Shown in pieces: positions 2,362 to 18,009 of a DNA stretch of 21,008 bases. Below the pieces are notes generated by a model. That model searched no databases. It saw only the letters and a list, made by a program, of their open reading frames with translations, and was not told the origin of the DNA. Position 1 is the first letter of the stretch. Every line of letters starts with the position of its first letter. Source of the stretch: a virus (lineage: Duplodnaviria; Heunggongvirae; Uroviricota; Caudoviricetes); IMG/VR virus record IMGVR_UViG_2671180458_000004. One strand, 5' to 3'. The position numbers and the translations under genes are program-made.

Positions 2362-3494
2362 TATTGCATTTCCTCTTTCATTTTCAGGAACTCGGCTTCG
2401 GTTTTACCCAGCAGATGGGCAGCGGCGATATCTTCAGCCGACAGCGCAGCGGTGGCAGTCTTTTTATCCGGCACGGTCACGGTGTCGGTCTGAAGGCCGG
2501 TCAGGGCCGCAACCGGCTGTCGGGCGTCAAGCTGTGCAGAAAGTGCCGCAACACCAATCTGCCCACCCAGTTGTTCCAGATAGCCGCGTTCGCTTTTGAA
2601 GATGCGCCCTTCGGATTCAGCCTTGTCCAGCACCTGCTCCAGTGTGGTGCTGCCGTGCTGTGCCGACAGCGCAACGTATTCGGTACGCAGGGCGTTATAC
2701 GTTTCAACGGGCACGTATTTCGTCAGATCAATACTGCCTCCAGCCGGTGTGCCTTTTGCGGTTTCCAGCTCTGCCGACAGACTGGCGACCTGTGTTTTCA
2801 GGTTGTCGTGTGCATCCGCACGGGTTTTGATCCCGGTGAGTGCAGACAGCGCCGCCGTGCCCAGCTCCGGCGTAAATTCGTCACCGTCAGCCACGGTCAG
2901 ACCGAGCGCCGTCAGCAACTGGCGTAATTGCTCATTCATGGGGTGTTGCTCCTGAGAAGGGGAAACTACATAGAGATCGTCAGCACTGAGTGCTGCGACA
3001 GGGTTCATACCCGTAATACCTGGATCATTCGTCAGGGAAGCCATGCGCAACAGGTAGGGTTCCCCGGTGTCAGCGAAATAATGCATATACGCAGACAGAT
3101 AGGCATATTCACGGTCATCAATATGTTTTTGGGCCTGCGGCGTCCATTCAGGTTTAATGAAAATCCCCTGACCCTCACGCCATTCGATGTTTTCCGGCTT
3201 AACCCAACCTGCGGCAATGGCCTTAAATCCGTTTTTCTGCGCATTCATGGAGTGATGGTCATAATCAATCAGTAACGGCTGATTCAGGGCGGAAAGCCCG
3301 GCTTTCATCCGGTTGCAGGCGGATTCGTTAATCAGCCAGCCTTCAGCCGGTTTTTCCGGGCGACCGTCACGGGCCTTTACCCTGCCTGCTGGCAGTAACT
3401 GACACCATCCGTCGCCGGATGCAGTCAGCGAAGCTGAAAGCACGGCTAAACCAGAGGGGCGATTTGCGTCTTTTGGGTGATTTTCTGTCTTCAT
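2361..3494 (-). CDS. I: Head maturation protease / scaffold, Mu gpI family (probably with a nested C-terminal scaffold product as in Mu I/Z)
   Basis: 377-aa ORF between the G-like and T-like genes. The N-terminal region (WCQLLPAGRVKARDGRP...LLIDYDHHS) is typical of the Mu I family. The Ala/Leu/Glu-rich C-terminal half looks like scaffold. The nested product is inferred from Mu. Confidence 0.85.
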   Translation of the reverse strand: MKTENHPKDANRPSGLAVLSASLTASGDGWCQLLPAGRVKARDGRPEKPAEGWLINESACNRMKAGLSALNQPLLIDYDHHSMNAQKNGFKAIAAGWVKPENIEWREGQGIFIKPEWTPQAQKHIDDREYAYLSAYMHYFADTGEPYLLRMASLTNDPGITGMNPVAALSADDLYVVSPSQEQHPMNEQLRQLLTALGLTVADGDEFTPELGTAALSALTGIKTRADAHDNLKTQVASLSAELETAKGTPAGGSIDLTKYVPVETYNALRTEYVALSAQHGSTTLEQVLDKAESEGRIFKSERGYLEQLGGQIGVAALSAQLDARQPVAALTGLQTDTVTVPDKKTATAALSAEDIAAAHLLGKTEAEFLKMKEEMQ

Positions 3495-3669
3495 ACCGGC
3501 AGCATAAGCCGGGAATTTTCAGGGCGGGTTTTGCGGGATTTCAGGAAGTATTTTCAGGGAAAAATGCAAAGGCGCTTCACGCAGATTTTAAAGCCCGTTA
3601 AATACAGGTTAGAAAATCACGACACGCGCCTGAAGGGGGTAAGGTAATGCATTTGCATACCTTAAACAA
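3495..3669 (-). promoter_or_regulatory. G-I intergenic region: candidate late promoter (Mu P_I position) and candidate strong gyrase site position
   Basis: 175-nt non-coding spacer in an otherwise overlapping operon. It holds an imperfect hairpin at 3641-3663 (aaggtaatgca tt tgcatacctt). Three copies of aTTTTCAGGg-like repeats sit at 3514-3524, 3537-3546 and 3549-3560. A 5-bp hairpin (ccggc/gccgg, 3497-3513) lies just before the I start codon. In Mu, both P_I and the central SGS map between G and I. Confidence 0.45.
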
Positions 3670-4143
3670 TTAAGGCGTTTCTGTGGCCTTTTTAAAGCGT
3701 TTTCTGATTTCGTCCATGATCTCCTGCTCTGCCACCTGATCAAAGCCCATATACGGGCGTGCACCAATGGCCGCCGGTCCCGGTGGCATACCGGGCAGGC
3801 CACCCCACTGATGAATGGCCGCATAAGGCTCATTTGATCCAATCAGCGCCCAGGTGTCGCCATAATCCGTGGTCAGGCGTCGGGCCAGATCGCCGTTCAG
3901 CGTCAGGATTTTGCCGGGCATGTATCCCTTACGGGTACGCCACTTGCGGTAAGGATCTGACCAGTCATGCCAGCGTTCGCCGTCCGGCTCTTTTTCCTGT
4001 TCAAACGCCATTTCTGAGGATGACAGAAGGCTGGACGCCACACTGCGGGCCAGGTCTTTTCCGCCACCCACAAACTGAAGCCGGGCAAAGACCCGCTGGA
4101 GACGCGTAACGTCAACAACGACAGCGGCATCAATGGATGACAT
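3670..4143 (-). CDS. G: Virion morphogenesis protein, Mu gpG family
   Basis: 157-aa ORF with GGAGG 6 nt upstream of the ATG. The sequence ...WHDWSDPYRKWRTRKGYMPGKILTLNGDLARRL...PYAAIHQWGG is typical of the Mu G / phage virion morphogenesis family. Synteny is F-G-I. Confidence 0.85.
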   Translation of the reverse strand: MSSIDAAVVVDVTRLQRVFARLQFVGGGKDLARSVASSLLSSSEMAFEQEKEPDGERWHDWSDPYRKWRTRKGYMPGKILTLNGDLARRLTTDYGDTWALIGSNEPYAAIHQWGGLPGMPPGPAAIGARPYMGFDQVAEQEIMDEIRKRFKKATETP

Positions 4144-4181
4144 ATTGCCTCCGCATAAAGGATGAATATAAAATAAACAGG

Positions 4182-4264
4182 CGGTCAGTGTACGCTTAAC
4201 TGGTAAAGTCGGTGCCTGCCTCCGGGTGGATCATGTATGCGGGTTCGACCCCCGCCACTGACCG
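4182..4264 (+). other. tRNA-like structured element in the F-G spacer (not a canonical tRNA)
   Basis: A perfect T-arm, GCGGG-TTCGACC-CCCGC (4239-4255), is directly followed by a strand (4256-4264) that pairs with 4182-4190 over 9 bp. U8/A9-like TA follows the 5' strand. The D-arm is plausible, CGCT/GTCG with one mismatch and a GG-containing loop (4193-4211). No 5-bp anticodon stem with U33 can be drawn in 4212-4238. Confidence 0.3.
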
Positions 4265-5596
4265 TTAATCAATATCTCCTTCCAGTACCTCAAGCATTCC
4301 GCCCCGGATATCCGATTTCAGCTTATCCATATTGATAACCCGGTAAGCATTCACAATCACATCCAGTTTATCCGGCTGACGCTTCAGGCTGTACGGCGCA
4401 TTAACGGCAATCTGCACACTGCCATCCTTACTTTCCACGATATACATCAGATTGTTGTGGCGTTTATCCCACAGTACCGCTTTTGGCGCGGCCAGCATTG
4501 CCGGTAATCGCCCGAAATCCTCCGGCGTCAGGGCGATACCGTCATTCTGATGTTTCATGCTGTCCGCATGGAGCACATTTTTACCGCTCATCGCCAGCAG
4601 GCGGGCCGGTGGCGTTCCCGTCCGGCTTTCCACCGCCTGCGCAATGCTTTCGGTCATAAAGCCCAGCGTGCGGATATCGTTACCGCCTCGCCGGGTTTTC
4701 ATGATGTTTTTTGCCCAGATGCGAAATGCCAGCTGCCGCTCCGGGCTGTTGTTCATCTCCTGAACCACCATTTCCCGTAACGCCGGGCTTTTCACTTCGA
4801 TCAGCTTGCGGATCAGCGCCTGGTCTGTGCCGAACGCCGCCGAACCGGGGTTATATGACCAGCCCACATCCGGTGTCATGGTTCTGGTGCCATCTGAATA
4901 TGTGGTCACCGGCATTTCTCTGACTTCTCCGGTCTGCTTATCCACGCCAGCCTCAACATTGCGGGTGGAGAGATGATCCTGACCGGATGAAACAGACAGC
5001 CCCATCGCATCCAGACGGGCCTGAGACAATGGCCGGACACGGCAGCGACAGTTCCAGCCATTGGGCGGGTAGTGTGTATTCCAGAACGGATCGTCATAGC
5101 GGAATACCAGCCCGTTAAGGGCGGAATGTGCCGGGCGGGTGCGGCTGTCCATCACCGCCACATACTGCCAGAACGGATGCGTGTCCGTGTTGTTCATCAT
5201 CTGCGTGTAACGCCCGGCATTGTAAGCCACACGGGTGTTCACGTTGTAAATCAGCGCCAGACGGCGGGGACTGCCCAGCTGCACTTCTTCCGCGTTACCG
5301 GCACTGTCCACCACAATCTGTTTTCCCCACCATCCCAGCTTTTGCAGGCGGGGTGTCAGCGTGCGAATAAATGCTTTCTGTGAAATCCCCTCATCAACAG
5401 CACGCTGCACTTCCGCCTGTAGTGTGGTCAGTACGTCCAGGCGTGCCACTTTTGCCGCCGTGAATGAACGGGCATGAACATCCGCGTCTGTTTCGAACCA
5501 GTTCCAGCTGATATGCGCCCCTTTGGCGCGGAAGTATGCCACCGCCTCTTTTGAGGCAAGTGTGGCGGCATAACCTAAATCAATCCCCTGTGCCAT
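4265..5596 (-). CDS. F: Head morphogenesis protein, Mu gpF (SPP1 gp7) family
   Basis: 443-aa ORF after the portal gene. It contains the family hallmark PFWQYVAVMDSRTRPAHSALNGLVFRYDDPFWNTHYPPNGWNCRCRVRPL. Confidence 0.9.
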   Translation of the reverse strand: MAQGIDLGYAATLASKEAVAYFRAKGAHISWNWFETDADVHARSFTAAKVARLDVLTTLQAEVQRAVDEGISQKAFIRTLTPRLQKLGWWGKQIVVDSAGNAEEVQLGSPRRLALIYNVNTRVAYNAGRYTQMMNNTDTHPFWQYVAVMDSRTRPAHSALNGLVFRYDDPFWNTHYPPNGWNCRCRVRPLSQARLDAMGLSVSSGQDHLSTRNVEAGVDKQTGEVREMPVTTYSDGTRTMTPDVGWSYNPGSAAFGTDQALIRKLIEVKSPALREMVVQEMNNSPERQLAFRIWAKNIMKTRRGGNDIRTLGFMTESIAQAVESRTGTPPARLLAMSGKNVLHADSMKHQNDGIALTPEDFGRLPAMLAAPKAVLWDKRHNNLMYIVESKDGSVQIAVNAPYSLKRQPDKLDVIVNAYRVINMDKLKSDIRGGMLEVLEGDID

Positions 5597-7178
5597 CCAG
5601 CATCCCCTTCATTTCCGCAGCAAACATGGCATCACTGAGCAGCGTCATCAGGCGGGAATCATCCATTTCACGGTAAAGGGCAGGCAGGTCTGCCAGTGCC
5701 TCCGCCAGCCCCCGCGTTCTGATGGCATCAATGACCGGCTCCAGTACCGGGTCGATGGCCTCCTGTAACCGACGGGCAGGCACCGCATCCCCCATGTCGT
5801 CCAGTTCATCTCGGGGGCTGCTCTTCGCTTCCGGCAGTCTGGCAGCCAGCGCTGTCTGCTCTGTCTTCTCCTGTTTTTCCGGTGGCATCTCTTTGTCTGT
5901 CTGAGCAGGTTCATTGCCACTCTGACGGACACGGAAGATGGCTTCGCCGGGCGTGGGCTGCGGAATACCCGTCTGCTCACGTATCCAGGGATCAGAAATA
6001 TCCATCCCCGTACTGAGCTGCATCACCGCACTGGTGATTTTGGTGATATCCCCCGGCTCTTTTGTCTGGAAACAGATACGCGGCAGGCGACGGATATCTA
6101 TGGCGTGGGCGGTGTTCAGGGCATACAGCGGATACACCAGATCGCGGTTCAGCGTGGCGGCCAGCTGACGTAAATCAGAATCCCTGATTTCCCGGCGCAC
6201 CTCGTTATGCACTTCACCCAGCGAGCGCGCGCCCTTGTCTCCGGCTTCCGTGGTCAGCGTGCCGCCGAGGATAGCTTTGGAGATGGAACGCTCCCCCCAC
6301 GAAATCATGGTTTCAAACGGATCGGCCTGACCGTTCGCTGCCGCCTGAAACTCCAGCGACATCCCGGCCGGGATGATCCCGCCTGTACGTCGCCCGATAT
6401 CCATCACCGCCCGCATCAGGGCGCTTTTCTGCTCCGGTGTTGCCCCGGACGGGTATTTACCGACCTTCATCGGCAGGCCGTACACCTCCAGAAATTCAGC
6501 CAGATCGCGCACGGAATAGTTTTTGAAAATGAACGGCCAGATAAGCGTTCTGACAAGCCCCGTCGCACCACCGTATCCAGTGCGTGAACGCGACTGATGC
6601 ACTATCCAGCCAAAGGGCTGAAACGCCACCCCGGCATGGCTGCCGTCACGCAGCCGCAGTTCGCTCAAATCATCCGGGTTAAGGCAGAAATGCCCGCTGT
6701 CACGCCAGCGGATGGCGCGGATGATGTGCATTTTACCGAGCATCCCGTGCTCAATCTCCATACAGGAATAGCCCTTCAGGATGGCATCGGTGGCATCAAA
6801 CAGCATGGCATCAAACCAGTCGGCGGAATGAAGATATTCGTCGAGCATTTCCGCGTCCTTTTTCTCATTCGCGCTGGCGTTCGGTGGCGGCTCAATACTC
6901 CAGGGCACGCCCTGAATGGCAAGACGTCGCTTGCCCAGCTCTGCAAAAAGGTGGGTATCCTTTTCTTCAATGTCAGCGGCCAGATCGGACTGGGCAATCA
7001 GATCGCCACGTTCAGCCCCGCGAAGGCACTGCGCCGCCCGGTTCGGGGTGATACCCGAGGCCGGATGTTCAATATAACGGCTGGCAATCTGCGGAATATC
7101 CAGCACGGCACTCTGCATCTCCGGATCAAAGGAGAAAGGTTTTCCGTCAAGATCAATTATGCGTCCCACTACCAGCAC
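5580..7178 (-). CDS. H: Portal protein, Mu gpH/gp29 family (DUF935-type)
   Basis: 532-aa ORF between the large terminase and the F-like gene. Size and position match the Mu portal. Its start overlaps the terminase gene end by 10 nt. Confidence 0.85.
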   Translation of the reverse strand: MLVVGRIIDLDGKPFSFDPEMQSAVLDIPQIASRYIEHPASGITPNRAAQCLRGAERGDLIAQSDLAADIEEKDTHLFAELGKRRLAIQGVPWSIEPPPNASANEKKDAEMLDEYLHSADWFDAMLFDATDAILKGYSCMEIEHGMLGKMHIIRAIRWRDSGHFCLNPDDLSELRLRDGSHAGVAFQPFGWIVHQSRSRTGYGGATGLVRTLIWPFIFKNYSVRDLAEFLEVYGLPMKVGKYPSGATPEQKSALMRAVMDIGRRTGGIIPAGMSLEFQAAANGQADPFETMISWGERSISKAILGGTLTTEAGDKGARSLGEVHNEVRREIRDSDLRQLAATLNRDLVYPLYALNTAHAIDIRRLPRICFQTKEPGDITKITSAVMQLSTGMDISDPWIREQTGIPQPTPGEAIFRVRQSGNEPAQTDKEMPPEKQEKTEQTALAARLPEAKSSPRDELDDMGDAVPARRLQEAIDPVLEPVIDAIRTRGLAEALADLPALYREMDDSRLMTLLSDAMFAAEMKGMLDGTGD

Positions 7179-11467: not shown

Positions 11468-11893
11468 TCAGAAAAGTGGCGGTTGCGTTCTTGCCAGATG
11501 CAGACGGCGCTGTTCGCGTATGACGGTATAAATCTGGGTTTCTGACATCCGGTAATGGCGGCGAAGGGATTCAATTTTCTCGCCCCGGTCCCAGCGCGAA
11601 AATATCTCATTGTTTCGCAGCTCGGCAAAGAGAGATTCCCCGACCGGCAGGTAATAACCCCGTCCGCCCATATAGGCTGCCTGAGCCGCAGCCACCTTGC
11701 GTGCCAGTTTACCGGCCAGTACCGGCTCAATCCCCTGACGCTGAAGTTCTGCGCCAGTGACTTCAACCAGTTCTGACAGGGTCCGCGGCCAGTTCTTTTT
11801 GAGAACATCATCAGGGATGTCATCAAGGCGGTCGATAAGGGCGTGCAGTTGCTCACTGTCACCACCAAACATGCTCATCTGAGTTTCTGCCAT
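11468..11893 (-). CDS. Mor/C-family transcriptional activator (middle/late gene activator)
   Basis: 141-aa ORF. The C-terminal HTH region LRNNEIFSRWDRGEKIESLRRHYRMSETQIYTVIREQR matches the Mu Mor/C family pattern. It lies directly upstream of the lysis and late genes. Confidence 0.85.
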   Translation of the reverse strand: MAETQMSMFGGDSEQLHALIDRLDDIPDDVLKKNWPRTLSELVEVTGAELQRQGIEPVLAGKLARKVAAAQAAYMGGRGYYLPVGESLFAELRNNEIFSRWDRGEKIESLRRHYRMSETQIYTVIREQRRLHLARTQPPLF

Positions 11894-15978: not shown

Positions 15979-16521
15979 TTATTCCTCCGTCAGCGCCACA
16001 TATTCAGAATGTTTAATTTCCTGGCATTCTTCAGGAATACACCCGTTTATTTCCCTGCCATAAGCGCCTACTTTAAACACCACGCACAGGGCATCACGGG
16101 AGAGTGACGGGGTCCACCAGGAGTCCGTGTTAAACATGGAGGGGATTCTCATTACCCCCAGCTTTTCACAGAGCCAGACAAGGAAATCAGGACGCTTTCT
16201 TAACTCGCGTTCAGCGGCTTCAACCATTGCGGCAATCGCCGGACCTTCAGGGCATGACTCATCAGGTCTGGCAATAAAGCACGGTCCGCCCCCGATAAAA
16301 GCCACATCATCGCGCTTACGCCAGCCCGCAGGCAGAGAACCAGAAAAATAAAACTCACTGATTACGTCCATGGCGAACGGCTTTAAGCGCAATCCGGCAG
16401 CGCCTGTATTTTTCAGTAATGCCCGAAGAATACTGTTGCGTAGCGGTAAAACAGTCTGTTGATATTTGGTGAAATATTTATTTGTCTGTACACGGTCTAA
16501 TTTGAAATAAAAATATGCCAT
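15979..16521 (-). CDS. Hypothetical protein (first gene after gam)
   Basis: 180-aa ORF with AAGGAACAGG upstream of the ATG. A 97-nt AT-rich spacer precedes it. No recognisable family. Confidence 0.6.
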   Translation of the reverse strand: MAYFYFKLDRVQTNKYFTKYQQTVLPLRNSILRALLKNTGAAGLRLKPFAMDVISEFYFSGSLPAGWRKRDDVAFIGGGPCFIARPDESCPEGPAIAAMVEAAERELRKRPDFLVWLCEKLGVMRIPSMFNTDSWWTPSLSRDALCVVFKVGAYGREINGCIPEECQEIKHSEYVALTEE

Positions 16522-16618
16522 ATTTCCTGTTCCTTATTTTCAGTTTACAGGCGCAGGCAGTCCCCTGACGCGAGCGCCATAATTAAAACGAAGTGATATT
16601 TAAAGATTTAATGCGGTG

Positions 16619-17149
16619 TTATTTATTCAGTCCGGCGTCCTGTTCAAAAGGCTCGACATGAAAACTTTCAGCACCTTTATTCACCTTAATACCAGCAACC
16701 CCTTTCACCGCATCCGGCTCCGCCAGGACAGCTTGCTTATTCACTTCCTCTTTCGTGCGGATGAAGCGCTCAAGCCCCATACGACGCAGCATTTCAATCA
16801 CACCTTCCACATCACGACTGACGCTGCATGATGGATTTCCCAGCCGCCATGACACCGTTCCGGTGGTCAGATTGGCAGTTTTGGTTTCGCCGCCGTTCGT
16901 CAGCTCATTGCGGTTGGTTTTACACCAGTCATGAATCCCCTTAAAAAGCACTTTGATTTCTTTTTTAAGGTTTTCAATCTGCGGCGTATAACGGGCGGTG
17001 ATTTCTGCCACTTCATCATTCATTGCCGTTTCCAGGCGCAGCGCCTCTCGCTGAATATCGCCCAGGGTGCGGATATCGCGGCTGACCTCTTCACGGGTCT
17101 GCGGTGCCGCCTCTGCTGCGGCCTTTAATTTTGTAACGCGTTTTGCCAT
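16619..17149 (-). CDS. gam: Gam, host-nuclease (RecBCD) inhibitor / DNA-end binding protein, Mu Gam family
   Basis: 176-aa ORF that aligns by eye along its length with Mu Gam. Shared segments include LGD(I/L)QREA.RLET.MND..AEIT, NR.ELTNGG..KTANL.TG.VSWR, RFIRTK.E.NK.A.L.EP.AV.GVAGI.V and PFEQ.AG. Confidence 0.9.
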   Translation of the reverse strand: MAKRVTKLKAAAEAAPQTREEVSRDIRTLGDIQREALRLETAMNDEVAEITARYTPQIENLKKEIKVLFKGIHDWCKTNRNELTNGGETKTANLTTGTVSWRLGNPSCSVSRDVEGVIEMLRRMGLERFIRTKEEVNKQAVLAEPDAVKGVAGIKVNKGAESFHVEPFEQDAGLNK

Positions 17150-17160
17150 TTTGTTTTTCC

Positions 17161-17454
17161 TTATTGCAATGTATCTGGTCCGTTCTGAACAGAACGGCGT
17201 TCAACGGAGCTGCTTACCCCCATGGCCTGCATGGAACCCTGTAGTTCATCTGTCAGAAACTGAATGATTGTGGGGCTGTGATATTTAAGAATTTGTGCAT
17301 AAACATCACAGGGTCCTGCCGGTCTGTTCTCTGTATCACGTTCGATTTTTACCGTGGCAGTAACCCCCTCCGTGATTTCCTTACTATCATTACCGGCTGG
17401 CTTTACTTCATGCATTACGTGGTCAAATTCAAAAATAACGCGTACTTTGCTCAT
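17161..17454 (-). CDS. Hypothetical early protein, tandem paralog A
   Basis: I prefer the ATG at 17454 (MSKVRVIFEFDHVMHEV...), 4 nt after the upstream stop. The ORF track's 17481 start overlaps the neighbour. The N-terminus parallels that of the adjacent 90-aa ORF. Confidence 0.6.
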   Translation of the reverse strand: MSKVRVIFEFDHVMHEVKPAGNDSKEITEGVTATVKIERDTENRPAGPCDVYAQILKYHSPTIIQFLTDELQGSMQAMGVSSSVERRSVQNGPDTLQ

Positions 17455-17458
17455 GGAA

Positions 17459-17731
17459 TTACCCCTGTTGATTAAATTCATTACCGTTAATAACCCCGGA
17501 ACTCATGTCCATATCTTTCATGAGCGCACTGGCTTTCATTGCCACAAGTTCAGCAAAGTCTCTGCTTTCCGCGAGCATAACCACCCCAAAAATCATGGCG
17601 GGTCCATCACCTTTCTGCTTTATCCCGGTTGAACGTATGTCCAGACTTACCCCCATGCGCACTGTTCCATCAGCGTTTTTATGGATAACGTGCTCCTTGT
17701 ATTCGAAAATAATGCGTACGACTTTACTCAT
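17459..17731 (-). CDS. Hypothetical early protein, tandem paralog B
   Basis: 90-aa ORF beginning MSKVVRIIFEYKEHVIHK.... It has a 4-nt overlap with the upstream gene. Confidence 0.6.
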   Translation of the reverse strand: MSKVVRIIFEYKEHVIHKNADGTVRMGVSLDIRSTGIKQKGDGPAMIFGVVMLAESRDFAELVAMKASALMKDMDMSSGVINGNEFNQQG

Positions 17732-18009
17732 CCTCTGGTCCTCGTTCTGTTTGGATAACTGACCCGGCGTCTGACCTCACGGCAGAACCGAATCATGGCA
17801 TTAAAGGCTTCTTCCTCCGTCACCGCTTCCGGTATCCCCGGAACCAGTAACTGCTCCTGTTCATCACGTCCATGACGCGCCATAACCTCAATCACATGCC
17901 GTACTGTGGCAGGCTTTCCGGCAACTATCGGCAATGCACCTTCCGGCAGGACGTAACCCAGTTCAATGAGACCGCTCGACCACGCCCACGCAATTAGATT
18001 TCGTTTCAC
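17728..18009 (-). CDS. Hypothetical early protein
   Basis: 93-aa ORF packed into the operon. IAWAWSSGLIELGYVLPEGALPIVAG is reminiscent of small conserved ORFs in Mu-like early regions, but I cannot name a family. Confidence 0.55.
   Translation of the reverse strand: MKRNLIAWAWSSGLIELGYVLPEGALPIVAGKPATVRHVIEVMARHGRDEQEQLLVPGIPEAVTEEEAFNAMIRFCREVRRRVSYPNRTRTRG

Follow-up and report, generated by a model that had tools for sequence, protein, structure and literature searches.

A tRNA-shaped RNA gene between genes F and G of Mu-like prophages and its possible role as a non-decoding tRNA mimic

What is a tRNA-shaped element doing, in antisense orientation, between two late genes of a Mu-like phage? 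The question is raised by a 21,008-nt stretch of viral DNA (IMG/VR record IMGVR_UViG_2671180458_000004; "the window" below, with all positions counted from its first letter), which covers the left and central part of a Mu-like transposable prophage. As judged from Pfam matches and the list of open reading frames (ORFs), every gene of the window lies on the minus strand, and genes F and G are separated by a 121-nt spacer that is home to the element. An earlier note, made from the sequence alone, had offered several explanations of this spacer: a decayed or non-canonical tRNA or tRNA mimic, a captured tRNA fragment, or a structure in the late mRNA. We conclude that the element is a real phage RNA gene, and neither a decayed tRNA nor a terminator. 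As for its role, our preferred reading, held tentatively and at somewhat less than even odds, is that 4145–4264 is a self-contained small-RNA gene, or "moron", between F and G, whose product acts in trans as a non-decoding mimic of the tRNA body.

On re-reading of the letters of 4144–4264, all of the sequence statements in the earlier note were borne out (coordinates of the parts are collected in Table 1). The 3′ strand CACTGACCG (4256–4264) pairs perfectly over 9 bp with CGGTCAGTG (4182–4190), TA stands at 4191–4192, corresponding to tRNA positions 8–9, the D-arm GCTT/AACTGGTA/AAGT (4194–4209) has GG in its loop, and the T-arm at 4239–4255 is perfect. The anticodon-arm region is indeed non-canonical, with no 5-bp stem carrying a 7-nt loop at 4210–4238; here the window has a bulged 8-bp stem capped by the tetraloop UCCG. 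Read on the minus strand, CCUGUUUAUUUUAUAUU comes after the long stem. Outside the anticodon loop, the universal tertiary nucleotides of tRNA are all present at 4191–4250 (U8, A14, G18, G19, A21, G53, U54, U55, C56, R57, A58 and C61), together with a Levitt-type A15–U48 pair.

The covariance-model search that the earlier note had proposed returned a match. With permissive filters and a search space of 311 nt, the Rfam tRNA family (RF00005) aligned to 4184–4263 on the plus strand with 31.0 bits, against a gathering score of 29 (E = 8e-5), lower-scoring clan matches being discarded in favour of tRNA. The alignment places 24 nt in the anticodon segment, where the model expects 18. A default fast-filter scan of the whole window in gathering mode did not detect the element. 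ARAGORN, likewise proposed in the earlier note and run for both tRNA and tmRNA, called nothing at the element in the window or at 17 related loci; because the anticodon loop is absent, this negative shows only the lack of a canonical anticodon arm. In E. coli genomes, the Prokaryotic Genome Annotation Pipeline (PGAP) of RefSeq labels the identical sequence, at exactly these bases, "tRNA-OTHER" with the isotype unassigned. A family covariance model built from 22 members (R1) scored 88 bits at 4179–4267, its sole match within the window.

Relatives of the element were collected in several ways. BLAST searches of 5,426 complete E. coli genomes found it in 230 of them (284 places), including O157:H7 and other Shiga toxin-producing E. 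coli, and each of the 284 matches belongs either to a Mu-like prophage or to a single type of small island. Diverged copies of 81–88 nt, with 72–76% identity, occupy the same place in other Mu-like prophages. We also scanned viral, genome and metagenome collections with sequence patterns and sorted the candidates with R1. The T-arm pattern used on metagenomes and the D-arm/T-loop pattern used on viral contigs mostly brought up genuine tRNAs, which were filtered out with R1 and ARAGORN; on genome contigs, a pattern of D-arm plus T-arm gave no matches and a looser T-arm pattern gave three. Further copies came from a survey seeded with an alignment of nine F proteins. The hosts added in this way include Leminorella grimontii, two Alishewanella species and Pasteurella multocida, and the collection now holds 43 distinct relatives, with Mu-like phages of E. 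coli, Leminorella, Alishewanella and Pasteurella as carriers. In Pasteurella phage Pmp9, for example, the 123-nt F–G gap, which is unannotated, contains a model match. Elsewhere the family loci carry the automatic labels "tRNA-OTHER" or "tRNA-Tyr", or none, and we found no description of the element in the open-access full-text library that was searched.

Comparison of these relatives shows, by covariation, that the cloverleaf fold is under selection. When 22 members were aligned with MAFFT, standard pairs made up 89.5% of cells in the acceptor, D and T helices, versus 77% in shuffles and 36–56% when the partners are slid, and 11 pairs change on both sides. RNAalifold, unprompted, recovered the extended acceptor stem and the T-arm. 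Among the 43 distinct members 95.2% of cells are paired, versus 72.3% in shuffles, and double changes are seen in 17 of 18 pairs, in an alignment that was fitted to the model and hence leans towards the structure. Covarying pairs are found in the acceptor stem (2–5, plus −1:73 and −2:74), in the D-stem (11–24, 12–23 and 13–22) and in the T-arm, where 50–64 alternates between C-G and U-A. The GG of the D-loop (A..GG..A) is present in every member and the T-loop UUCRA in 41, and the universal tertiary positions are kept in 41–43 of the 43. These compensatory changes preserve the fold in phages whose F proteins are only 38–66% identical.

The same comparison bears on the strand. Plus-strand G·U pairs number 22, versus 5 A·C or C·A cells, which would be G·U on the minus strand; because of this bias and of the T-loop and D-loop consensus, we assign the functional RNA to the plus strand, antisense to the late operon. 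The assignment tells against the suggestion in the earlier note that the spacer works from the minus strand as an attenuator or terminator. In its broader form, that explanation holds that an attenuator, terminator, processing site or barrier to 3′ exonucleases in the late mRNA sets the F:G ratio, and that the likeness to tRNA is a relic. The minus-strand RNA does fold stably too (−33 kcal/mol) and runs on into a U-rich stretch, and the insertion removes the F–G overlap seen in phage Mu, so that translation of G is uncoupled from that of F. However, the wobble bias of 22 to 5 favours the other strand, the consensus of both loops fits the plus strand only, and a terminator scan found no minus-strand site in 4144–4264, where the U-rich tract begins about 8 nt after the multibranched stem. 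The tract also varies between lineages, while its reading as a −10 box is conserved: AUUUUA is better read as the complement of TAAAAT in a plus-strand promoter, and other lineages have TATACT, TACTAT or TATAAT at the same distance. We consider a late-mRNA structure improbable.

The predicted promoter is the only σ70-like site within 3400–4700, and transcription from it is predicted to start at about 4180–4182, at the base of the extended stem. A −10-like hexamer recurs in almost all of the independently positioned members that were checked (TAAAAT, TATACT, TACTAT, TATAAT or TAGGAT, depending on the lineage) and ends 5–14 nt, and mostly 8–10 nt, before acceptor position +1, L139 alone having a weak one. 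In tandem arrays, copies two and three have no −10 box. At the other end of the gene, the TAA stop codon of F (complement of 4265–4267) directly adjoins the base of the stem. The Leminorella copies, the only ones with a terminator seen, have a GC hairpin and a T-run behind them on the tRNA-sense strand, and in the other copies, with the F stop abutting the stem, the 3′ end is presumably formed by exonuclease trimming back to the stem. Within F, a terminator-like hairpin and T-run also lie at 4551–4585 on the plus strand, the strand of the RNA, about 290 nt downstream of the element, and could mark the end of a longer antisense transcript.

Conservation of the tRNA core is set off by a central arm that takes the place of the anticodon arm. 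At its base, the first three anticodon-stem pairs are kept with covariation (27–43 is G·U in 25 of 28 members; 28–42 is U-A in 14 and C-G in 13; 29–41 is G-C in 17 and A-U in 8), and its distal part is wholly different in sequence and length even between otherwise nearly identical phages. This distal part forms a hairpin in 26 of the 28; in the short Alishewanella copies L036 and L037, the whole arm folds instead. Terminal loops measure 3–4 nt in 32 of the 43 members, and the sole 7-nt loop in the set is that of a genuine tRNA-Gly, which the model had matched as well. A canonical arm with a 5-bp stem and a 7-nt loop containing U33 can be drawn in a single member, L298, as tRNA-Ile(UAU). When the long distal loops of five variants were searched against their own loci, no complementary site was found besides the element itself, the sole other match being a low-complexity one in L011.

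The acceptor end is closed as well. In most members, −1 pairs with 73 and −2 with 74, with covariation (AU, CG, UA, GC), giving acceptor stems of 9–12 bp, and no family member encodes N-CCA at 73–76. The discriminator at 73 varies (C, U or A) and pair 3:70 is never G·U across the family, and therefore no aminoacylation identity that depends on the acceptor alone is conserved. Since the anticodon loop is replaced and the acceptor end is sealed by pairing of leader and trailer without an encoded CCA, an RNA of this architecture cannot decode, and its charging is unlikely if the sealed end persists in the mature RNA.

Two assignments to tRNA identities were tried and rejected. His, Ala or Leu identity conferred by the acceptor stem alone does not hold as a family property: G−1:C73 is not conserved (U73 and A73 occur), 3:70 is never G·U, and A73 is rare. 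A decoding tRNA with an 8-nt loop, or tRNA-Tyr in the case of the island copy described below, fails on the fold, as the "GUA" lies in a 6-nt palindromic loop and the 7-nt register is unpaired.

Could the gene nonetheless be a vestigial tRNA, that is, a phage tRNA that worked once and, after loss of its anticodon loop, is drifting with no function left? The negative ARAGORN result, the borderline Rfam score, the isotype left unassigned by PGAP, the existence of A58C and G57A polymorphisms in the T-loop and the distant member L298, still drawable as tRNA-Ile(UAU), are all to the credit of this idea. Yet compensatory changes keep every stem down to about 38% F identity, the central arm is a closed hairpin in nearly every member and not the product of random decay, and the promoter motif is held at a fixed distance. 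Moreover, the leader–trailer pairing covaries, a thing that real tRNA genes do not conserve. A pseudogene is thus very improbable, and of the formula "decayed or non-canonical tRNA or tRNA mimic" in the earlier note, the mimic survives, on the strength of a complete tRNA core, a covarying cloverleaf and a predicted promoter of its own, and decay falls away, as compensatory changes maintain the fold.

The T-loop polymorphisms are found among the E. coli copies, viral contigs of the L008 type included, at window positions 4244–4250, as G57A (TTCAACC) and A58C (TTCGCCC). G57A keeps the purine, yet PGAP annotates no tRNA feature on such a copy (L270, E. coli O157:H7 FRIK804).

Without exception, the R1 match at Mu-like loci adjoins the 3′ end of F and occupies the opposite strand, and the F proteins of the phages concerned range from 96% down to about 38% identity with that of the window. 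The match is missing from Mu-type phages and from loci where F aligns over its N-terminal half only. In phage Mu, F (16073–17392) and G (17389–17859) share four bases, and a scan of the Mu locus with the family covariance model gave no match. Because of this overlap and the lack of a model match, the spacer with its element represents extra DNA relative to Mu, and with Mu as the comparison the element shows one mark of a moron: it is absent from a relative in which the flanking genes are adjacent.

Several loci depart from the simple arrangement of one copy per gap. L302 has two copies in one F–G gap (2847–2926 and 3076–3160), and a −10 box of its own precedes each of them. L067 is a short metagenome contig, perhaps with sequence errors, and has copies at 118–199 and 752–835, of which the second is more divergent, about 550 nt away and apparently in or beside the C-terminal part of F. 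In L126 (2501–4182), a close relative, F is 96% identical over residues 1–418, has a different C-terminus (469 aa) and is followed by a 271-nt gap without the element, which suggests that the 3′ end of F and the RNA gene were replaced jointly through recombination. Finally, L147/L148 (3773–3868) and L150–L152, with F proteins 29–35% identical, have F–G spacers of 110–135 nt whose antisense strand forms a long terminal stem and a T-arm-like hairpin that covaries between variants, with TATACT upstream in L150–L152. These spacers fail the Rfam tRNA model, and the family model gives about 20 bits in L147/L148 and no match in L150–L152. They may be very divergent relatives and were not counted as members.

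The proposal that the element is a captured 3′ fragment of a host tRNA, left as an attachment-site (att) remnant of an integrase, has general precedent, as tRNA-like sequences in prophages are frequently att duplications (PMC9897764). The element, however, is full length, with an entire cloverleaf and not a 3′ half, and the comparison with host tRNA genes suggested in the earlier note brought up none: no host tRNA gene matching the element was found among the 5,426 E. coli genomes. The att reading is also unsupported because Mu-like phages transpose and do not integrate at tRNA genes; the window encodes the Mu A and B transposition proteins and not an integrase, and the element sits in the middle of the late operon. 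We give it next to no credence.

Copies also occur outside Mu-like phages. An island of about 8 kb at ileX in E. coli JNEC-KY179 (L153 1507–9394, equal to NZ_AP045176.1 744506–752393) encodes an integrase, a helix-turn-helix protein, ash, two Icd-like proteins, a DUF4222 protein, a RepA-type helicase, SSB, PerC and a Mor/C-type activator, lacks structural genes, and terminates in two tandem copies of the element that PGAP labels "tRNA-OTHER" and "tRNA-Tyr". Such islands are present in 15 of the 5,426 E. coli genomes. Metagenome contigs carry two or three tandem copies with different central arms, one array lying next to dinD. Further loci of this kind are L100 1–1700, L084, L093 and L096. The island activator is 47% identical to the Mor/C-type protein of the window, which is its best match among phage records. 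Given the shared element and the related late activator, the island looks like a satellite of this Mu-like lineage; to our knowledge, no satellite of Mu-like phages has been described, though no literature search was aimed at this point. An orphan copy with its own −10 box was found in Alishewanella aestuarii, outside any Mu-like context (L036 4452–4531, NZ_ALAB01000027.1). It lies between a tRNA-Gly gene, about 720 nt away, and a type I-F-like CRISPR array, whose trailer end is about 65 nt away. Neither the island copies nor the orphan are antisense to any gene.

These outlying copies are relevant to the idea that selection acts on the DNA, with the element serving as a "centre": a strongly transcribed or structured site in mid-genome that organises supercoiling or end synapsis, like the strong gyrase site of Mu about 500 bp away. 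The location of the element, at about 0.47–0.53 of the 40-kb Mu-like insert in LC727881, its strictly conserved position, and the fact that the gyrase site of Mu, a phage without the element, is in the neighbouring G–I gap are what one would then expect. But G·U wobble pairs and tRNA tertiary nucleotides point to selection on an RNA and not on duplex DNA, and no transposable genome has the island or orphan copies at its centre. We rate this explanation slightly below even the pseudogene.

In the mechanism that we propose for the trans-acting mimic, the σ70 promoter (TTGCCT-18-TAAAAT) would start transcription at the foot of the 9-bp stem, and the resulting RNA of about 83–90 nt would fold into a complete tRNA L-shape, with an acceptor/T-arm helix, a D-arm and a D-loop/T-loop elbow. 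The anticodon loop would be exchanged for a zipped, variable hairpin and the acceptor end sealed by the conserved leader–trailer pairing. To judge from this architecture, the RNA may be an inert stand-in for the tRNA body, taking up a factor that recognises tRNA shape. The best candidate for that factor would be a tRNA-directed nuclease or toxin of host or rival immunity, with RNase P or another tRNA-handling enzyme as the alternative, and the variable arm might tune specificity or stability. The connection with anticodon nucleases raised in the earlier note is conceivable as well. We infer action in trans because the elbow is the most conserved part, because the two ends that matter for translation and for cleavage by anticodon nucleases are both closed, and because copies occur outside an antisense context.

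Several observations weigh against this proposal. The fold is no more stable than those of shuffled sequences by RNAfold (z = −0.63 on the plus strand and −0.47 on the minus strand, neither significant), and we dropped thermodynamic stability as an argument. A58C (TTCGCCC), which should weaken a canonical T-loop, occurs in 11 of the collected copies of the window type and in some island copies. A simple competitive decoy would face a very abundant pool of host tRNA. Removal of the 2–4-nt leader by RNase P, if real, would weaken the argument from the sealed end and make CCA addition and charging possible. The decoy role is itself a reading of architecture. And the fixed position and antisense orientation in every Mu-like phage, with a promoter on the ribosome-binding region of G, could reflect a role in cis.

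A role in cis is the main rival explanation, which we consider unlikely. It takes the element to be a cis-acting countertranscript or a convergent promoter: the RNA, or polymerase firing from 4145–4174 across the ribosome-binding site of G, would oppose the late transcript at the F–G junction, through transcriptional interference or an RNA–RNA duplex cleaved by RNase III, and would curb leaky late expression in lysogens or set the level of G. The tRNA-like fold would contribute only stability and processing, and the variable arm would set specificity as in plasmid RNA I/CopA or P1 c4. Position and orientation are invariant in every Mu-like member found, which favours this rival. In the window, the Shine-Dalgarno sequence of G, GGAGG (complement of 4148–4152), lies beneath the −35 hexamer, and in other lineages the promoter contains or adjoins the start codon of G. 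Antisense specificity groups show a hypervariable arm on a conserved scaffold, and the family resembles them in this. On the other hand, the island and Alishewanella orphan copies are antisense to no gene, and an antisense role has no need of U8, A14, G18G19, U54U55C56 or A58, yet these are the most conserved nucleotides even in the most divergent members. The RNA itself leaves the Shine-Dalgarno sequence and start codon of G uncovered, only the promoter overlapping them, and G and the genes downstream of it, which alone would be affected, are an odd control point.

A wider proposal can also be made, which we regard as rather doubtful at present: that the elements form an undescribed class of "sealed" tRNA-body mimics, common to Mu-like phages of several orders of Gammaproteobacteria and to a satellite-like island, which would serve as uncleavable and unchargeable binders of a tRNA-recognising factor, be it an immune nuclease or toxin or RNase P. 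In this view, an arms race would have shaped the hypervariable arm into a module for specificity, and each island array would combine two or three specificities. Phage tRNAs known to counter tRNA-cleaving immunity are decoding tRNAs; a conserved tRNA shape with closed ends and a promoter of its own would amount to another strategy, in which a DNA phage mimics the tRNA body. Lysogens are common (the 230 E. coli genomes above), and the gene takes up only about 120 bp. There is also a consequence for annotation, in that loci labelled "tRNA-OTHER" or "tRNA-Tyr", or left unlabelled, should not be counted as tRNA genes.

The features discussed here and their neighbours are listed in Table 1. Beyond G, the window has a 175-nt G–I gap (3495–3669) at the place where phage Mu has its strong gyrase site (Mu 17879/17880), and a terminator-like hairpin lies on the plus strand (3454–3474). 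The window has a sole gene of the Mor/C family (11468–11893), between GemA and the lysozyme gene, where Mu has separate mor and C genes.

Table 1. Features of the F–G spacer and its surroundings in the window
Feature	Position	Strand	Basis
Predicted σ70-type promoter: −35 TTGCCT (4145–4150), 18-nt spacer, −10 TAAAAT (4169–4174)	4145–4174	plus	motif scan
tRNA-shaped RNA gene, 83 nt including extra pairs −2:74 and −1:73	4182–4264	plus (antisense to late operon)	Rfam tRNA, PGAP, model R1
Extended acceptor stem, 5′ strand: C−2, G−1, then GTCAGTG (tRNA positions 1–7); CGGTCAGTG	4182–4190	plus	9-bp perfect pairing with 4256–4264
U8, A9, one extra C, and D-arm with stem GCTT/AAGT and loop AACTGGTA (A14, A15, G18, G19, A21)	4191–4209	plus	alignment to tRNA model
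Arm in place of anticodon arm: CG; base stem GTG/CAT (27–29 with 41–43); distal hairpin CCTGCC-TCCG-GGTGG with bulges (4215–4231); variable loop GTAT (4235–4238)	4210–4238	plus	
T-arm: GCGGG (4239–4243), TTCGACC (4244–4250), CCCGC (4251–4255)	4239–4255	plus	sequence and tRNA model
Extended acceptor stem, 3′ strand: CACTGAC (66–72), C73, G74; CACTGACCG; CCA not encoded	4256–4264	plus	pairs with 4182–4190
Gene G, Mu gp31-like virion morphogenesis/neck protein	3670–4143	minus	Pfam Phage_tail_S
Gene F, Mu gp30-like minor head protein	4265–5596	minus	Pfam Phage_Mu_F and MuF_C; ORF list
Portal gene	5580–7178	minus	Pfam, ORF list
Gene order: transposase A (C-terminal part), B, Gam, GemA, Mor/C-type activator, lysozyme, gp27, large terminase, portal, F, G, protease I, major head protein T		minus	Pfam, ORF list

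How does the element compare with known systems? With canonical tRNA (RF00005) it shares a 7-bp acceptor core, U8, a D-arm with A14, G18G19 and A21, the first three anticodon-stem pairs, a 4-nt variable loop, a T-arm with UUCRA and the A15–U48 pair. Unlike a tRNA, it has no 7-nt anticodon loop, no U33, no anticodon and no encoded CCA, and it has an extra C after A9 and the −1:73/−2:74 extension. Because it is the defining features of the anticodon arm and the 3′ end that fail, it should not be filed as a tRNA.

Among non-decoding RNAs, YrlA, reportedly described by Chen et al. in 2014, is said to be a tRNA-like module of bacterial Y RNAs that bind Rsr/Ro. Like the element, it does not decode, keeps the tRNA elbow and is closed at one of the tRNA ends; some mobile elements also carry it, and its action is presumed to go through proteins that recognise tRNA shape. 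The topology is the reverse. In YrlA the acceptor end is capped and the 5′ and 3′ ends emerge on the anticodon side, in the Ro-binding stem, whereas the element is capped on the anticodon side and has its ends on the acceptor side. A sensitive Rfam scan gave no match to the Y-RNA family at E ≤ 10, and no rsr gene was present among 20 proteins scanned from part of the window. The tRNA-like domain of tmRNA is similarly a mimic of the acceptor and T-arm without an anticodon. It differs in having G3:U70 for alanylation, a CCA that is encoded or added, a D-arm of reduced size and an attached, long mRNA-like domain with a tag ORF, where the element has C-G at 3:70, a complete D-arm and a length of about 85 nt.

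C4 of P1/P7 is a phage countertranscript that is processed by RNase P and base-pairs on the ant mRNA. It is small, constitutively made and handled by the tRNA-processing machinery, as the element may be, and has sequence variants that constitute specificity groups. It has neither cloverleaf nor elbow, and the Rfam scans of the window gave no C4 match. Morons of temperate phages, a notion said to go back to Juhala and Hendrix, are a closer parallel in gene organisation: the element is an extra unit with its own predicted promoter between genes that are adjacent in a relative, and is likely to be expressed in the prophage. It is unlike them in that its product is an RNA and not a protein, and in being retained over very deep divergence instead of occurring sporadically.

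Two further comparisons concern function. The MALAT1 tRNA-like element, mascRNA, is described (PMC8457004, PMC11693755) as tRNA-shaped and non-decoding, with a degenerate anticodon arm and a functionally important leader–trailer pairing by the acceptor stem; unlike the element, with its own predicted promoter, it is eukaryotic and is cut from a long transcript by RNase P and RNase Z before CCA is added. The tRNA-Tyr of phage T5, in a preprint on retron Ec78 (bioRxiv 10.1101/2023.03.15.532788), is a tRNA-type phage molecule proposed to neutralise tRNA-targeting immunity. Phage tRNAs of this type decode and replace cleaved host tRNAs, whereas the element would act as an uncleavable binder. By analogy, the element appears to work like the tRNA mimics YrlA, the tmRNA domain and mascRNA, while differing from each of them in topology, identity elements or biogenesis.

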